IMG/VR virus record: IMGVR_UViG_2778261575_000001
Strand: one strand, 5' to 3'
Source of the DNA: a virus
Taxonomy: Duplodnaviria > Heunggongvirae > Uroviricota > Caudoviricetes
Length of the DNA: 35,577 nucleotides
The position numbers and the translations under genes were made by a program. Under the pieces are notes generated by a model that saw only the letters and a program-made list of their open reading frames with translations, was not told where the DNA came from and searched no databases. Below are positions 3,040-11,424 of this stretch, one piece after another (the stretch's first letter is position 1; every line of letters starts with the position of its first letter).

Positions 3040-3336
3040 TTATACCTCTGAATCAATATCAACCTGGTGGTGAGCAATGGTTTCAACCATGTACCGGATG
3101 TGTTCTGCCATGTGCTCCTGAAACTCAACATCGTCATCAAACGCACGGGTAATGGCTTTTTTGCTGGCCCCGTGGCGTTGCAAATGATCGATGCAGAGTG
3201 ATTCAAACAGGTGCTGTGGAAGACCTTTTTCCATGTCGTCTGCCAGTTCTGCCTCTTTCTCTTCACGGGCAATCTGCTGGTAGTGACGCGCCCAGCTCTG
3301 AGCCTCAAGACGATCCTGAATGTAATAAGCGTTCAT
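3040..3336 (-). CDS. gam: Gam (RecBCD inhibitor), short GamS-type form
   Basis: 98-aa ORF ([34 protein letters not shown]...VDIDSEV) matching the C-terminal 98 aa of lambda Gam; AGGAG RBS upstream; the upstream in-frame region is interrupted by stop codons. Confidence 0.9.
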
Positions 3337-3411
3337 GGCTGAACTCCTGAAAATGGCTGTGAAAATATCGCCCGCGAAATGCCGGGCTGATTAGGTAAAC
3401 AGGAAAGGGGA

Positions 3412-3702
3412 TTAGTGATTCAGGCCGTTGCCGCGTCCGTCGAGAAAAACTTCCACGAGCAAATCACGGGTATAAGTGCGCTCGATGCCGCGATGCAGAT
3501 AAAGCCGTCCGCGTAAATTAGCTGATGCAGTCCAGGTACCATCTTTGTGTTTGACCAGCATTCCTGGCATGACCGCACCGCGATTAACGGTCTGCGTTCC
3601 GTAATGTTGATGAACCATAAAAACTCCTGCCCGTAAGCTGGGCTGCTGAACATATAGAGACTTCTGCGCGTATTCAGGCGGTGGATGGCCGCCGGTTGTC
3701 AT
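3412..3702 (-). CDS. hypothetical early-left protein between gam and OL
   Basis: First in-frame ATG with a GAGG RBS gives 96 aa ([20 protein letters not shown]...). The track ORF extends to a TTG at 3822, adding an Arg-rich N-terminus (see findings). An alternative-frame ORF at 3420..3653 also exists. Confidence 0.3.
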
Positions 3703-3869
3703 AACTAAGCCGCCTCGTTGAAGCGACTGAGGTATGAGGTGTTGAGTTGATTTCAGCTGGTCACACCGACGTTCACGCGTCCGCTTCACCCCTCGCACTT
3801 CCCGGAGCCTGCTGAAATTCAAGCTGCGGATCTAAGCGGTCATCGCAACGGTGAATCAGGTGGTTGCCG

Positions 3870-3970
3870 TATCGTTGTGTTGTTGCGATGAATTTATTTA
3901 AAACTATAGTTGTTTTGTCGTCAACAACAAAAGTTGTTTTATTGGTTTTTTTAGATGTAAATGGTTGTAT
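3870..3970. promoter_or_regulatory. OL/pL-type operator-promoter region (GTTGTT/AACAAC inverted repeats)
   Basis: GTTGTT(3909-3914)-N8-AACAAC(3923-3928)-N4-GTTGTT(3933-3938), plus ATGGTTGT at 3961; the same half-site as the OR palindrome. Lies upstream of the leftward operon. Confidence 0.45.
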
Positions 3971-4065
3971 TTAGGATGGATTTATTTTGTGACTTGCATC
4001 GCATAGCGATAACTGAAGCGAGGTCGTGGTGGTTTTTTGAACGGTTTGTGTGATGAGGGGGAGGG

Positions 4066-4094
4066 GCAAAAGAAAACCCGGCACGGTGGCCGGG
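4066..4094 (-). terminator. intrinsic terminator downstream of the ASCH gene
   Basis: Stem CCCGGC(4077-4082)/GCCGGG(4089-4094) with a 6-nt loop; on the minus strand it is followed by TTTTCTTTT (plus 4068-4076), directly after the ASCH stop at 4099. Confidence 0.55.
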
Positions 4095-4098
4095 ATTC

Positions 4099-4476
4099 TT
4101 ACGCAGGTAGGTAAAGATATGATTGTGGTGGCTTAATATTACTACCTAGAGCAGAGATAGGAATTGGTTCTTTATATCTTTCCACTTCACCAATTTTTAT
4201 TGCGTAGGCCTTTTCTCTACCTGAATAATATGAGTCATAAAATTGCTTAGAAATACCTGCGTGTTTTTCCGTCTTTTTCCAAAGAGATTCCGGTTCGTCA
4301 CTTAGTATTGATTCAATACGGAATTGACCAACAACTTTACCTAATGGCATCGTGGCATAAATAACAACGGTGCTAATTTGCGGATTTTTGAATATACCTT
4401 TACGAAACTCGAACCGCTTTGTTCCGTTCAATATTTTTTCTGCAAACTCAGGCTTAATGGATAATAAAACTTTCAT
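4099..4476 (-). CDS. ASCH-domain (PUA-like) protein
   Basis: 125-aa ORF; N-terminus MKVLLSIKPEFAEKILNGTKRFEFRK matches the ASCH signature (K-x-LL-x-I-x-PE-[FY]...K...E-x-R); A+T-rich codon usage; start lies 23 nt inside the upstream gene. Confidence 0.65.
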   Translation of the reverse strand: MKVLLSIKPEFAEKILNGTKRFEFRKGIFKNPQISTVVIYATMPLGKVVGQFRIESILSDEPESLWKKTEKHAGISKQFYDSYYSGREKAYAIKIGEVERYKEPIPISALGSNIKPPQSYLYLPA

Positions 4477-5527
4477 TTATCTTGCCTAACTCGATGATCT
4501 TTAAGAACTGCTCATTTGTGAGTTTAAAGTGACTCCATCGGAATGCACGCGAACCATTTAGCCCCACATGATCTATTAAAATAGCACGATTGGGTCTCTT
4601 TGGCAAAGACAGATTGTATGTGAATCTTATAATGAAAGGGTATCGACGTTCTTTATAGATTTTTCTGAGTTCATCTTCAGAAAATACGCTAAAACGAATA
4701 CAATAGTCTACAAAACTATCTTCGCTTAAAAATTCAGAAATATTTTTTACGCTCTCAACTACACATAATGTACTGGCTACAGAACGATAGCGAGCTGGCC
4801 CTTTTTTGTCTCCGGTTCTATAGATGACAATGATATCTCCTCTTTTCATTCCCATCACAGAACGCATTCCACATATGTAAATTTTATGAATGCTGTTAGC
4901 ATGGGATATATCTTTGACAATATCTGGTGATTCATTTACAAGTTTTGAATCAGGGAATAGTCTAGTGTGATATTCGGGATAAATCGCCAGTAAATATTTG
5001 TTGGCTCTTGATGTCATTATTCGAGGGTAATCTAATAAAATATCACCATAAGGCTCATGCAAAGACCTCGCATATACAAACTCTTTCCCGTTATGTGTTT
5101 CTTTTTCACCATGAATGTAAAATCCGTACGTTTGGAAAAGTTTTATTAGATGGACGTGTTTGTCGAAAACAGTAACATAAATATCATCAGATTTTGATGA
5201 AAATGCATGGTCAAACGCTTTTTTTAGAAATCGTTGTCCGCGAAGGGTGCCTTTAGATTCAAATTTGAATGTTCCTATCTTTAGATGACGTCCTGGTGGG
5301 AGCGCTGGATTAATGTCATTTGCATCATCATTTTCTTTTAGATACATAAAACCTTCGATTTTATGCTTGTCATCATAGAGCACATAAGCTGATTCTCCTT
5401 CTCTGGCTTTTTTTTCTAACCAAAGAGGAAACTCTTTATAATCTTTTTTTAAAGAGTCAAAAAATGGGTCATTGTGATCAAAATCAGAGAATTTCTCATA
5501 TTTTAAAGTATCCATTAAGTTCTCCAT
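4454..5527 (-). CDS. GNAT-like acyltransferase fused to a PUA-like (ASCH-type) domain, candidate effector of an immunity-region module
   Basis: 357-aa ORF with verified ATG and TAA. N-terminal half has a GNAT-like core (...IYVTVFDKHVHLIKLFQTYGF...); C-terminal half has an ASCH-like start (KYLLAIYPEYHTRLFPDSK) followed by GDIIVIYRTG. Domain calls are by eye. Confidence 0.6.
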   Translation of the reverse strand: MENLMDTLKYEKFSDFDHNDPFFDSLKKDYKEFPLWLEKKAREGESAYVLYDDKHKIEGFMYLKENDDANDINPALPPGRHLKIGTFKFESKGTLRGQRFLKKAFDHAFSSKSDDIYVTVFDKHVHLIKLFQTYGFYIHGEKETHNGKEFVYARSLHEPYGDILLDYPRIMTSRANKYLLAIYPEYHTRLFPDSKLVNESPDIVKDISHANSIHKIYICGMRSVMGMKRGDIIVIYRTGDKKGPARYRSVASTLCVVESVKNISEFLSEDSFVDYCIRFSVFSEDELRKIYKERRYPFIIRFTYNLSLPKRPNRAILIDHVGLNGSRAFRWSHFKLTNEQFLKIIELGKINESFIIH

Positions 5528-5595
5528 TCTAAAATGAATAATTAAGTTGTTTTACTGAATGAGCACAATGCCCGGTTGATAATTTTTAATTGGTA

Positions 5596-6285
5596 CTATC
5601 CATGCTTCCTATACGTCTGCGGCATGCTCCCAATAACTTTCCCGAAGATAAACACCCGGTTCATCTCGTCTTTCTCGATTGGGTCCCACGGTGAGTAGCT
5701 CTTGTTATCAGAGATAACCAGCAGTTTATCCTTCATCATTTGCAGGCGCTTTACATGGGCTGTGTCGTCGTACAGAAACGCATAGATACCATCACCGTCG
5801 AAAGATTTAACCGTGATATCAACGAACAGCAGATCACCAGGTTCAATCGTTCCTGACATGCTGTCACCGCGTACGTTAATGATGCGGATATTTTCTGCCT
5901 TCCTGCCATCGAACATGTGACGAGCATCGTCAAACGAGTACTCAACCGAGCGTAGGACTTCTACAAACTCACGGTTGATGACACCCGGCCCGGCACTCAC
6001 TTCTATATCAAGAACGTCAATCTTAAAGTATTTGGAATGGCTGACAGTTGGTTGTATTGGTTGCACTGTACTGTCTGACATATTTCCAACGCCAGAAGAT
6101 AACCATTCTGCGCGCACACCCAAAGCGTTCGCGATCTCCACGATTTTAGTTGTTTGATTAGCTTTTCCTGTTTCGATTTTCTGAATAGCAGCTTGGCTAA
6201 CCCCGACCAAATCCCCAAGCGCCTTTTGTGTAAGGCCTCGCGCTAATCTGGCTTCTTTAAGTCTTTCTGAGAGTGTTGTTTTCAT
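5596..6285 (-). CDS. cI: cI-like prophage repressor (HTH_XRE + S24 LexA-like peptidase domain)
   Basis: 229-aa ORF with an N-terminal HTH (LTQKALGDLVGVSQAAIQKIETGK) and C-terminal S24 motifs (VRGDSMSGTIEPGDLLFVD ... VKRL); sits between the OL-like and OR-like repeat regions; ATG at 6285 has no SD, suggesting a leaderless mRNA. Confidence 0.85.
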   Translation of the reverse strand: MKTTLSERLKEARLARGLTQKALGDLVGVSQAAIQKIETGKANQTTKIVEIANALGVRAEWLSSGVGNMSDSTVQPIQPTVSHSKYFKIDVLDIEVSAGPGVINREFVEVLRSVEYSFDDARHMFDGRKAENIRIINVRGDSMSGTIEPGDLLFVDITVKSFDGDGIYAFLYDDTAHVKRLQMMKDKLLVISDNKSYSPWDPIEKDEMNRVFIFGKVIGSMPQTYRKHG

Positions 6286-6389
6286 AGTTCAAATGTACAA
6301 CCAAGGTTTTATTCCATCAAACGAAAATGGTTGTTGACTAAAAACAACCATAGTTTTAATCTTGATTCAAATTAACCACGGAGGTTGTT
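6286..6389. promoter_or_regulatory. OR region with divergent pRM/pR candidates
   Basis: Perfect 9-bp inverted repeat ATGGTTGTT-N7-AACAACCAT at 6327-6351. Candidate pR: TTGACT (6333-6338), 16-bp spacer, TTTAAT (6355-6360). Candidate leftward pRM (coordinates on plus strand): TTGATG (6315-6320), 17-bp spacer, TACATT (6292-6297), start at the cI ATG. Confidence 0.5.
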
Positions 6390-6620
6390 ATGAACCCAGC
6401 TATTAAAACAGCGATCAATATCGTTGGTTCACAAAAGAAACTGGGCGCTGCTTGCGAAGTTTCACAGCAGGCCGTCTATAAGTGGCTTCACAACAAAGCA
6501 AAGGTATCCCCTGAACATGTCGGCAGCATTGTTACGGCTACTGGTGGAGTAGTGAAGGCACACCAGATTCGCCCGGATCTTCCGAAGTTGTTTCCACACA
6601 CCGAAAAGAACGCAGCTTAA
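6390..6620 (+). CDS. cro: Cro-like repressor (YdaS-type HTH)
   Basis: 76-aa ORF, GGAGG RBS, first gene rightward of OR; resembles YdaS/Cro-type small HTH proteins (..GSQKKLGAACEVSQQAVYKW..). Confidence 0.7.
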   Translation: MNPAIKTAINIVGSQKKLGAACEVSQQAVYKWLHNKAKVSPEHVGSIVTATGGVVKAHQIRPDLPKLFPHTEKNAA

Positions 6621-6632
6621 ATTTCCATTTCA

Positions 6633-6645
6633 CGCTCTTTAACAA
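6633..6645 (+). promoter_or_regulatory. boxA-like element (nutR candidate)
   Basis: CGCTCTTTAACAA, 13 nt after the cro stop, closely matches the boxA consensus (lambda CGCTCTTA; rrn GCTCTTTAACAA); no boxB hairpin found. Confidence 0.35.
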
Positions 6646-6689
6646 TAAGCAATCAACTTAACAGTCAATTCAAACTAAAGGAGTCAATT

Positions 6690-7229
6690 ATGCAACCACT
6701 TACATACCAACAGACTAGCGGATTTAGCCCGACTGCGGTGATAAATCGTTCTCAAACAAAACAGGTGCCAGGCCACGAAAAAATCCGTGATGCCGTCCGC
6801 GCCTGGTCGGCTGAAGATAATCAGGATGTCGTTGCCACACTCATTGTGAATGAGTATCGGGAGCAGGGCGGCGGCACCATCGATTTCCCTGATGATGTCA
6901 GCCGTGCACGCCAGAAGCTGTTCCGCTTCCTCGATAACAAATTCGATTCTGAAAAATACCGAAATAACGTGCGTGAACTGACCCCGGCAATCCTGGCGGT
7001 ACTACCGCTGGAATATCGCGGTTACCTGGTTGAGCAGGATAGCTTCATGGCTAGGTTGGCTGAAATGGAAAAGGAACTCAGTGAGGCAAAACAGGCTGTC
7101 ATTCTCAACGCACCACGCCACCAGAAACTGAAGGAAATTAGTGAAGGTATTGTGTCGATGTTTCGTGTGGACCCAGATCTGGCTGGTCCATTGATGGCGA
7201 TGGTTACTACCATGCTGGGGGCGATATGA
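6690..7229 (+). CDS. YdaT-family regulator (CII-position protein)
   Basis: 179-aa ORF between cro and O with an AAGGAG RBS; shares the remembered YdaT-like pattern (EY.EQGGG ... PAILAVLPLEYR). Confidence 0.5.
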   Translation: MQPLTYQQTSGFSPTAVINRSQTKQVPGHEKIRDAVRAWSAEDNQDVVATLIVNEYREQGGGTIDFPDDVSRARQKLFRFLDNKFDSEKYRNNVRELTPAILAVLPLEYRGYLVEQDSFMARLAEMEKELSEAKQAVILNAPRHQKLKEISEGIVSMFRVDPDLAGPLMAMVTTMLGAI

Positions 7230-9242: not shown

Positions 9243-9309
9243 TGAAACAGGTGAGTTGAGTTCAAACTGTAGTACAATTCTCTCCAGTTTGAACAGGAAA
9301 GAATATGCT

Positions 9310-9642
9310 ATGAACCCTTATATTTATCTTGGTGGTGCAATACTTGCAGAGGTCATTGGTACAACCTTAATGAAGTTTTCAGAAGGTTTTACACGGTTAT
9401 GGCCATCTGTTGGTACAATTATTTGTTATTGTGCATCATTCTGGTTATTAGCTCAGACGCTGGCTTATATACCTACAGGGATTGCTTATGCTATCTGGTC
9501 AGGAGTCGGTATTGTCCTGATTAGCTTACTATCATGGGGATTTTTCGGCCAACGGTTGGACCTGCCAGCCATTATAGGCATGATGTTGATTTGTGCCGGT
9601 GTGTTGGTTATTAATTTATTGTCACGAAGCACACCACATTAA
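9310..9642 (+). CDS. emrE: small multidrug resistance efflux transporter EmrE
   Basis: 110 aa from the ATG at 9310 (MNPYIYLGGAILAEVIGTTLMKFSEGFTRLWPSVGTII...) matches E. coli EmrE, a known DLP12 prophage gene; RBS AGGAAAG upstream. Confidence 0.95.
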   Translation: MNPYIYLGGAILAEVIGTTLMKFSEGFTRLWPSVGTIICYCASFWLLAQTLAYIPTGIAYAIWSGVGIVLISLLSWGFFGQRLDLPAIIGMMLICAGVLVINLLSRSTPH

Positions 9643-9897
9643 AAATAATTTATTTTTAAACGACTAAAATATTGAGGTTCGTATATTTGTATGGGCCTCG
9701 TTTTATGCTTTTTGTTAATGTCTTTAGTTTTTATTCATTCTTTTGATCTTTCAAGATTATGGTGTAAGAAAATTGCAATACGATTATTGTTGTATATTCA
9801 AGATAATGTGACCTTAATTGTCTTTTTAAATAAAAATTAAACAAAAATCATATCTCACCACTAAGGTTTATAAAAGCATACTTTAGCAGGTGTCACC

Positions 9898-11424
9898 ATG
9901 AAAAAAGCCATAGCATATATGCGATTTTCATCACCAGGTCAGATGTCTGGTGATTCATTAAACCGCCAGAGAAGGCTTATTACTGAATGGCTAAAGGTAA
10001 ATAGTGATTATTACCTTGATACCGTAACGTATGAAGATTTGGGGTTAAGCGCATTCAATGGAAAGCATGCACAATCAGGAGCTTTTTCGGAATTTTTAGA
10101 TGCTATAGAACATGGTTACATATTGCCAGGGACTACATTGTTAGTTGAAAGTCTGGACAGACTTTCAAGAGAAAAAGTCGGTGAAGCGATTGAGCGTCTG
10201 AAATTGATTTTGAATCACGGTATTGATGTTATAACTCTTTGCGATAATACAGTCTATAATATAGACTCATTGAATGAGCCATATTCATTAATAAAAGCCA
10301 TACTTATAGCACAAAGGGCAAATGAAGAAAGCGAGATAAAGTCAAGTCGGGTTAAATTATCATGGAAGAAAAAACGGCAGGATGCACTGGAATCAGGCAC
10401 GATTATGACGGCGTCTTGTCCGAGATGGCTCTCATTGGATGACAAAAGAACAGCTTTTATTCCACACCCCGACAGGGTGAAAACGATTGAGCTAATTTTT
10501 AAACTCAGGATGGAAAGGCGATCATTGAATGCAATAGCTAAGTATTTAAATGATCATGCTGTAAAAAATTTTTCAGGAAAAGAAAGTGCATGGGGGCCTT
10601 CTGTAATTGAAAAATTATTAGCGAATAAAGCTCTGATAGGTATATGCGTACCTTCATATCGTGCAAGAGGGAAAGGGATAAGTGAAATCGCTGGCTATTA
10701 TCCCAGAGTCATATCAGATGATTTGTTTTACGCTGTACAGGAAATTCGGTTGGCACCTTTTGGTATTAGCAATAGTAGCAAGAATCCTATGCTAATAAAT
10801 CTACTTCGAACAGTTATGAAGTGTGAGGCTTGTGGTAATACCATGATTGTTCATGCGGTATCTGGACGTTTGCATGGCTATTATGTTTGTCCGATGAGAA
10901 GATTACATCGATGTGACAGGCCATCAATAAAAAGAGATTTGGTTGATTATAATATCATTAATGAATTGCTTTTTAATTGTAGCAAAATTCAACCAGTTGA
11001 AAACAAGAAAGATGCTAATGAAACTTTAGAGTTAAAAATTATTGAGCTTCAGATGAAAATTAATAATTTAATCGTTGCATTGTCTGTCGCGCCTGAAGTT
11101 ACCGCTATAGCAGAGAAAATAAGACTATTAGATAAGGAATTACGAAGGGCTTCGGTATCATTAAAAACTTTGAAGAGTAAAGGGGTGAGTTCACTTGGTG
11201 ATTTTCATGCTATTGATTTAACCAGTAAAAATGGGCGAGAGCTATGTCGTACACTTGCCTATAAAATATTCGAAAAAATTATAATTAATACAGATAATAA
11301 AACCTGTGATATCTATTTTATGAATGGCATTGTTTTTAAACACTATCCTTTAATGAAAGTAATATCCGCCCAGCAGGCGATAAGTACTCTTAAATATATG
11401 GTTGATGGTGAGATTTATTTTTGA
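9898..11424 (+). CDS. ybcK: large serine recombinase (YbcK-like)
   Basis: 508-aa ORF with a resolvase-type N-terminal catalytic domain (AIAYMRFSSPGQ...SLNRQ); size and neighbourhood (after emrE) match DLP12 ybcK; A+T-rich. Confidence 0.8.
   Translation: MKKAIAYMRFSSPGQMSGDSLNRQRRLITEWLKVNSDYYLDTVTYEDLGLSAFNGKHAQSGAFSEFLDAIEHGYILPGTTLLVESLDRLSREKVGEAIERLKLILNHGIDVITLCDNTVYNIDSLNEPYSLIKAILIAQRANEESEIKSSRVKLSWKKKRQDALESGTIMTASCPRWLSLDDKRTAFIPHPDRVKTIELIFKLRMERRSLNAIAKYLNDHAVKNFSGKESAWGPSVIEKLLANKALIGICVPSYRARGKGISEIAGYYPRVISDDLFYAVQEIRLAPFGISNSSKNPMLINLLRTVMKCEACGNTMIVHAVSGRLHGYYVCPMRRLHRCDRPSIKRDLVDYNIINELLFNCSKIQPVENKKDANETLELKIIELQMKINNLIVALSVAPEVTAIAEKIRLLDKELRRASVSLKTLKSKGVSSLGDFHAIDLTSKNGRELCRTLAYKIFEKIIINTDNKTCDIYFMNGIVFKHYPLMKVISAQQAISTLKYMVDGEIYF

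Follow-up and report, generated by a model that had tools for sequence, protein, structure and literature searches.

A GNAT-ASCH gene pair in a prophage repressor operon as a candidate toxin-antitoxin and defence module

The cassette and its identity

We analysed two adjacent genes, here called A and B, that lie on the minus strand directly downstream of a cI-type repressor gene in a 35,577-nt stretch of viral DNA (Caudoviricetes; IMG/VR record IMGVR_UViG_2778261575_000001), the whole of which we refer to as the window. A combines an acetyltransferase fold of the GNAT type with a PUA-like domain, B consists of a single ASCH domain, and judged by its sequences the pair is a member of the candidate defence system PDC-M11 and probably of the class of GNAT-EVE + ASCH operons. 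An earlier note, made from the letters of the DNA alone, had described two minus-strand open reading frames (ORFs) of 357 and 125 amino acids (aa) with a 23-nt overlap, and these lengths match the ORF list. The cassette is built as follows.

4095..5596, minus strand: swappable cargo cassette (spacer, A and B), from the stop codon of cI to the backbone terminator, delimited by the breaks in homology to sister phages; G+C content (GC) 0.348
5516..5595, minus strand: spacer between cI and A, without a terminator and with GGAGA at 5525-5521
4454..5515, minus strand: gene A (GevT-like, PDC-M11A), 353 aa from its likely start
4099..4476, minus strand: gene B (GevA-like, PDC-M11B), 125 aa, a single ASCH domain

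The PADLOC search proposed in the earlier note matched both proteins full-length to PDC-M11. A aligned with PDC-M11A (PDLC04419) at E 2.1e-133 (residues 6-356 on positions 10-356 of the 357 in the profile), and B with PDC-M11B (PDLC04425) at E 6.8e-52 (residues 1-123). Escherichia phage PhiR47_2 (PV340567.1) is 99.9% identical to the window over 3300-6800, and its depositors annotated A as "GevT toxin" and B as "GevA antitoxin"; this is the same cassette, with equal gene order and position after cI and no substantive difference. The wider class was described by Bell, Wolf and Koonin in 2020, who found that GNAT-EVE fusions nearly always have an adjacent ASCH gene, that such operons are common in beta- and gamma-proteobacterial prophages and are predicted toxin-antitoxin systems, and that none of the modules had been experimentally characterised (PMC7641849). 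The statement in the earlier note that the pair was not recognised as a named system is thus superseded by PDC-M11, by the operon class of Bell et al. and by the Gev labels; what we re-discovered is a catalogued and named, mechanistically uncharacterised system.

The ORF list gives A as 4454..5527 (minus strand), 357 aa from an upstream ATG at 5527. The true start is probably the second ATG, at 5515, because most A homologues and RefSeq start there (353 aa); GGAGA at 5525-5521 reads as the Shine-Dalgarno sequence of this ATG. The coding regions of A and B overlap by 23 nt (4454-4476), which suggests translational coupling. The GC of the cassette compares with a window mean of 0.503 (standard deviation 0.065) and is the lowest among all 1.5-kb stretches of the window, and GC at third codon positions is 0.27-0.28 in A and B and 0.50-0.61 in cI, bet, exo and O. 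The windowed calculation therefore bears out the A+T-richness relative to the flanking genes that had first drawn attention to the pair. No Rfam family scored above threshold anywhere in the window. An internal promoter in the cassette (for example at 4606-4578, upstream of B) was rejected, as promoter-like matches numbered 6 against 7.9 expected, which is chance level.

Homology of the window to PhiR5_1 and PhiR26_1, phages of the same GenBank series with a shared backbone, stops at 4094 and resumes at 5597. Because homology breaks there, the swappable cassette is 4095-5596, and the terminator that follows B belongs to the backbone. In PhiR5_1 the slot holds HipA/HipD, and in PhiR26_1 a lipoprotein gene. 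These sharp junctions (4094/4095 and 5596/5597), together with the exchange of cargo between sister phages, support the proposal that the module was acquired horizontally. A further phage, PhiR34_1, has lost the equivalent of 4175-5550 by deletion, which leaves 76 nt from the end of B and 45 nt of spacer.

Pairing and placement in lysogeny operons

A one-genome-per-species scan returned 293 relatives of A, from which 80 loci were retrieved, all with at least 45% identity; with the PhiR47_2 locus these make up 81 genome loci. The viral set comprised 54 divergent viral contigs with 54-83% identity to A. The 80 loci come from Proteobacteria, Bacteroidota, Firmicutes, Cyanobacteria, Chloroflexota, Verrucomicrobia and others. 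A homologue of B was present in 81 of the 81 genome loci, immediately downstream of A on the same strand and with the same short overlap in 75 of them, and B adjoined A in 54 of the 54 viral loci. A without B was found in none of the loci of either set (0/81 and 0/54). This near-strict adjacency with a conserved overlap is new here. In five of the 81 loci (L013, L017, L022, L035 and L070, from Vibrio, Photobacterium, Shewanella and Clostridium) B is convergent to A, and the gene found upstream of A in L013 and L022 encodes a 506-523-aa protein with weak ZorA/MotA-like PADLOC matches.

A Pfam census of the neighbours in 74 genome loci found Peptidase_S24 to be commonest upstream (5/74) and phage integrase commonest downstream (6/74). 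Since the flanking genes are otherwise heterogeneous, the A-B pair is self-contained, and we rejected a conserved third gene. An AAA_17 ATPase and an unannotated protein of ~360 aa each occur in 8 of the 80 loci, and neither is present in the window. The ATPase, of 170-190 aa (L014:1720-2232, L020, L064, L073, L071:5419-5997, L042, L017 and L077), is a neighbour that Bell et al. noted for GNAT-EVE + ASCH operons (PMC7641849). The second protein, of ~360-440 aa, lies beside A-B in L008:4903-5976, L010:4835-5974, L012:4888-5964, L021:4861-5991, L044:7391-8485, L062:5915-7093, L071:8020-9342 and L077:7944-9140, and directly upstream of A in the viral loci L171-L176, L179 and L184. Neither Pfam nor PADLOC nor PHROG gave a match for it, and it may be either a third component of the system or an independent piece of cargo; we rejected it as a relative of A, as no similarity was found.

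The A profile, searched against 1.84 billion representatives, matched 1,877 clusters (at 50% identity) at E no higher than 1e-3. Among these are forms of ~500 aa and ~620 aa with the A-like region at the C-terminus, which by their architecture fit the PIN-GNAT-EVE variants that Bell et al. described.

A gene on the same strand, ending no more than 350 nt upstream of A, was found in 52 of the 54 viral loci; of the 52 encoded proteins, 31 carry HTH_3, 20 Phage_CI_repr and 10 Peptidase_S24. In L008, L010 and L012 (Scandinavium, Raoultella and Brenneria) the gene order is P2-type C repressor, an unknown gene (the ~360-440-aa protein described above), A, B and integrase, which is the lysogenic operon of an unrelated, P2-like phage family. 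That both lambdoid and P2-like prophages carry the pair in a repressor operon, as read from gene order, is new here, and this recurrent placement supports expression with the repressor in lysogens. The cassette is also tied to two immunity types: in prophages such as that of E. coli SCU-485 and in 13 of 19 informative IMG/VR contigs the sequence is shared up to the middle of cI (6152), and this second type differs in the N-terminal domain of cI, in the operator region and in cro. Within this mosaic the S24 half of cI (5597-6152) is common and 6153-6688 differs (L083, L096-L099 and others).

In the window itself, the putative operon and its control region contain the following features.

5596..6285, minus strand: cI-type repressor (Pfam HTH_3 + Peptidase_S24), first gene of the putative operon
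4066..4094, minus strand: intrinsic terminator of the cI-cargo operon, stem 4094-4077 with 6 G-C pairs, then a T-run
6292..6320, minus strand: candidate pRM, TTGATG at 6320-6315, 17-nt spacer, TACATT at 6297-6292, from manual sequence reading
6296..6358: OR-like operator cluster, 16-mers at 6296, 6320 and 6343, from a pattern search
6334-6339: candidate pR -35 element TTGACT, read from the sequence
3899..3938: OL-like operators at 3899-3914 and 3923-3938, inverted repeats, from a pattern search
3924-3919, minus strand: TTGACG of a candidate pL, overlapped by the OL-like operators

The repressor is 229 aa long and is annotated cI in PV340567.1, and its HTH_3 and Peptidase_S24 domains corroborate the placement of the pair directly behind a cI-like gene on the same strand. 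A site scan of the gap between cI and A found no terminator-like or promoter-like site on the minus strand, and the 95-nt spacer RNA had no stable fold (minimum free energy -8.8 kcal/mol, z +1.28), so the claimed absence of a terminator between the two genes stands. The terminator after B folds at -14.8 kcal/mol (z -2.98), is shared with phages that have other cargo, and is conserved in L084 (PhiR34_1), L085 and L086. The earlier note was right about its hairpin and T-run; it is, however, part of the phage backbone and not of the cassette. The candidate pRM ends 6 nt before the cI ATG (6285) and scores 8/12, below the promoter-scan threshold; it is lambda-like and would yield a near-leaderless cI mRNA. 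Seven AACAACnnnnGTTGTT-like 16-mers with up to two mismatches occur in the 35.6 kb, and five of them fall in the two flanks of the cassette region (3899 and 3923; 6320, 6343 and 6374), which confirms the position between OL-like and OR-like clusters; a further site with three mismatches, at 6296, gives a 23-24-bp spacing in the OR region. As no terminator intervenes and the pRM candidate is lambda-like, co-transcription of cI, A and B in the lysogen is plausible.

Other parts of the window deserve a brief description. The positions of cro and cII (6390-6620 and 6690-7229) are occupied by members of the YdaS (PF15943) and YdaT (PF06254) families, not by lambda Cro and CII. Between the candidate pL and a 68-aa KilR-type gene (3412-3618) lie ~280 nt (3619-3895) in which we recognised no N-like ORF and found no Rfam match, and which could be an untranslated leader carrying antitermination elements. 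A second A+T-rich island (9256-11424, GC 0.31-0.38) occupies the nin region and encodes an EmrE-type SMR transporter (9256-9642 in the ORF list; shorter in the annotation) and YbcK, a serine recombinase of 508 aa (9898-11424), an arrangement as in DLP12-like prophages.

Protein folds, natural variants and proposed action

The AlphaFold model of A (pLDDT 87, pTM 0.86) has two domains, an N-terminal GNAT acetyltransferase fold (residues ~1-155) and a C-terminal PUA-like domain of the EVE/ASCH type (residues ~165-353). The best solved-structure match of the C-terminal, or reader, domain is ZmASCH, which belongs to the family of B, and not an EVE protein; Pfam EVE matched below threshold only. This assignment of A as a GNAT plus a PUA-like domain closest to ZmASCH is new here, and in the models the reader domain and B are of one fold family. 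The relationship rests on fold because profile similarity is weak: a local match at E 2.6e-4 and a probability of 43% led us to reject the C-terminal domain of A as a sequence relative of B.

B matches Pfam ASCH at E 2.5e-8, and its structure model has a pLDDT of 95.8. ZmASCH (PDB 5GUQ; its sequence entry is named "helix-turn-helix domain-containing protein") was found by sequence at E 8e-16 with 33-34% identity and by Foldseek with a TM of 0.90. Mutagenesis of ZmASCH showed that the cleft residues Tyr47, Lys53 and Ser128 matter for nucleic-acid binding and for RNase activity in vitro (PMC5615036). B shares these residues as Y40, K47 and S119, respectively; Y40 and S119 do not vary across 31 relatives, and K47 is conserved for the most part. 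Judged from the alignment, B thus combines the ASCH fold and the GxKxxExR motif with the Tyr/Lys/Ser cleft of ZmASCH.

Both genes are intact in 21 of the 21 IMG/VR loci that cover them, and the A protein is identical in 20 of these 21, with flanks that differ by 2-4.5%. Among the decay alleles, one encodes an N-terminally truncated A (P0245), and two loci (L087 and L090) have a 441-nt deletion, at the window equivalent of 4433-4873, that takes approximately residues 215-353 of A, the reader domain, and codons 1-15 of B. This deletion and that of PhiR34_1 are independent natural derivatives. The decay alleles found mostly damage A, which fits with A being the harmful partner.

On balance, the pair is probably a toxic enzyme with its antidote, expressed from the repressor operon, and the listing of the pair by PADLOC as the phage-defence candidate PDC-M11 makes a defence reading reasonable. 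In favour of the toxin-antitoxin reading count the Gev annotation, the prediction by Bell et al., the closeness of B to ZmASCH, the strict pairing of A and B amid heterogeneous neighbours, their recurrent place in lysogeny operons, the lack of a terminator between cI and A, the HipA/HipD genes in the same slot of a sister phage, the decay alleles that hit A, and the preservation of both genes in the IMG/VR loci. Known GNAT toxins acetylate aminoacyl-tRNA, according to a 2018 review by Yeo that Bell et al. cite. In a lysogen, the cassette would most likely be transcribed with cI from pRM up to the shared terminator at 4066-4094, and B would probably be translated by coupling to A through the 23-nt overlap. 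A would act as an acetyl-CoA-dependent GNAT enzyme that its PUA-like domain docks onto nucleic acid, most plausibly RNA or tRNA, and growth would stop once the target (an aminoacyl-tRNA amine or a base) is acetylated. Domains of the PUA superfamily typically have RNA or modified bases as ligands (PMC7641849, PMC5615036). B would keep A harmless through direct binding, or it would occupy the same ligand or compete for it; neutralisation by competition, as a decoy, is attractive because B shares the fold family of the reader domain of A. When another phage infects or the prophage is lost, the activity of A would be freed and would lead to abortive infection, exclusion or addiction.

Our confidence in any particular substrate of A is much lower than in the toxin-antitoxin reading. 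A more specific scheme, in which GevT acetylates a base or aminoacyl-tRNA chosen by its reader and GevA, a free-standing relative of that reader, is a decoy on the ligand or reader surface rather than a classical sequestering antitoxin, is a long shot. If true, it would represent a new toxin-antitoxin logic, possibly with the first base-acetylating immune effector, and lambdoid as well as P2-like prophages would express it from their repressor operons.

Several observations weigh against a toxin-antitoxin module with a role in defence. In structure searches the GNAT domain of A showed no specific closeness to known GNAT toxins and matched N-terminal acetyltransferases, RimI and PaiA best. Its partner does not belong to the DUF1778/RHH antitoxins, and the putative toxin gene precedes that of the partner. 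Our literature search found no paper using the Gev names and no experiment on PDC-M11, which was mentioned once, in a listing from an O157:H7 strain; the toxin and antitoxin labels rest on GenBank annotation and predictions, and PDC-M11 is a candidate defence system only. Defence genes (SoFic, ResIII, reverse transcriptase) are only occasional neighbours, and the promoters of the operon were assigned by manual reading of the sequence. In addition, the L089 assembly has an intact A and a B with a -1 frameshift in an A6 run (window 4434-4439, codons 13-14 of B), which, if real, would mean that A is not lethal without full-length B.

The frameshift allele (loci L089, L088, L091, L092 and L083) is rare, with 0 against 24 wild-type copies in IMG/VR by exact-string count, and could be a sequencing error in the homopolymer, a case of phase variation or a sign that the loss of full-length B is tolerated. 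Translation may restart at a TTG that overlaps the TGA stop created by the frameshift, which would give a 110-aa product (P0256). We rejected P0256 as a truncated antitoxin, as it reflects the rare A-run frameshift with TTG restart, or a deletion allele, and not wild-type B.

Among the alternatives, the one that survives best, and that we nonetheless hold to be unlikely, is a benefit to the phage other than defence: addiction or stabilisation, modulation of lysis and lysogeny, or anti-restriction or host takeover directed at modified nucleic acids. Stabilising a mobile element is a frequent role of toxin-antitoxin modules, and the tight linkage of the cassette to the C-terminal half of cI across both immunity types would suit such a role. 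According to Bell et al., GNAT-EVE proteins may protect phages from host restriction (PMC7641849); however, placement in the lysogenic repressor operon, and not in an early lytic transcript, argues against anti-restriction at the time of infection. It also counts against this reading that PhiR34_1, in which both genes are deleted, is still a viable temperate phage, and that PADLOC places the pair among defence candidates.

An alternative that we rate as more doubtful is that A writes and B erases a mark: A would acetylate a base (for example, cytosine at N4), and B, as a YqfB-like amidohydrolase, would remove the acetyl group, making the modification reversible. A GNAT paired with an ASCH protein hints at a writer and an eraser, and base acetylation for such operons was proposed by Iyer et al. 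in 2013, as cited by Bell et al. (PMC7641849). Moreover, E. coli YqfB, which is among the fold matches of B, is an ASCH-domain N4-acetylcytidine amidohydrolase with the nucleophile Thr24, assisted by Lys21 and Glu74, and with Arg26 in the oxyanion hole (PMC6972931). However, in the alignment (with a YqfB sequence checked against 1te7 and 9kyf) Thr24 falls on an invariant Glu of the B family (E23), in a GxKxxExR motif of which only the Lys and Arg (K20 and R25, conserved in B) are common to both proteins. The position of Glu74 is Ser or Thr in B, according to an alignment made by hand, without a tool, and anchored on the shared TEKHA motif. B also has far more identity with ZmASCH (33%) than with YqfB (13%), and the YqfB structures 9kyf and 9kyh match B with a TM of 0.55-0.59 when normalised to B and of 0.65-0.70 when normalised to YqfB. 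B and YqfB thus share the ASCH fold, but the catalytic Thr that defines YqfB is absent from B, an observation that is new here; we rejected B as a YqfB-type amidohydrolase for this reason, and it lowers the probability of the writer and eraser scheme.

The least probable alternative is that B is the effector or regulator, a Mg-dependent single-strand RNase like ZmASCH whose substrates A modulates or marks, since, although ZmASCH is the closest characterised homologue of B, degrades single-stranded RNA in vitro and needs for binding and activity the Tyr and Ser that B conserves, its RNase activity was seen in vitro and has no cellular substrate assigned to it (PMC5615036), the depositors of PV340567.1 call B the antitoxin and the decay alleles mostly hit A.

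Significance and comparison with known systems

At a threshold of at least 99% identity, the cassette is found, once per chromosome, in 275 of 5,426 complete Escherichia coli genomes, including O157:H7 strains with the prophage next to mlrA, and at least 1,000 public contigs record the exact A and B proteins, solely under generic names. The exact cassette is therefore present in a prophage repressor operon in about 5% of complete E. coli genomes, O157:H7 strains among them, and the accessible literature yielded no biochemical activity, target or phenotype for it. If the pair is a lysogen-expressed abortive-infection or exclusion module, it would bear on phage therapy and on the dynamics of Stx phages and other lambdoid phages in pathogenic E. 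coli, and would add an acetyltransferase with a PUA-like reader to the known immune effectors. The present analysis contributes a map of where the cassette begins and ends, structural assignments for A and B, the exclusion, as judged by the aligned catalytic residue, of a YqfB-type eraser mechanism, and the repeated finding of the pair in lysogeny operons of unrelated temperate phages.

The GNAT type II toxins (TacT/TacA, AtaT/AtaR, ItaT, KacT) are single-domain proteins of ~170 aa with an upstream RHH/DUF1778 antitoxin. They share with our pair a GNAT protein as the proposed toxin, a two-gene module, residence on mobile elements and acetylation of a translation-related target as the likeliest action. 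In contrast to them, A carries an extra PUA-like domain of 190 aa, and its partner is a downstream ASCH protein. No sequence-level relationship to these toxins was detected, and Pfam found no DUF1778/RHH domain; with a two-domain toxin and a reversed gene order as well, we rejected membership in the TacAT/AtaRT/KacAT family.

The rexA-rexB genes of lambda occupy the same slot, downstream of cI, between OR and OL and with the operon terminator at the end, and they share the likely expression logic and the character of moron-like, low-GC cargo. RexAB consists of a sensor and a membrane ion channel, whereas our pair is an acetyltransferase with an ASCH protein, without homology to it, and searches of A and B against Pfam, PHROG, NCBIfam and PADLOC yielded no RexA or RexB family.

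The (PIN)-GNAT-EVE + ASCH operons share with the pair the GNAT fused to a C-terminal PUA-superfamily reader, the adjacent ASCH gene, the location in gamma-proteobacterial prophages and the occasional AAA_17 ATPase neighbour. Compared with these operons, the pair of the window is a short form, without the PIN domain and the AAA_17 gene.

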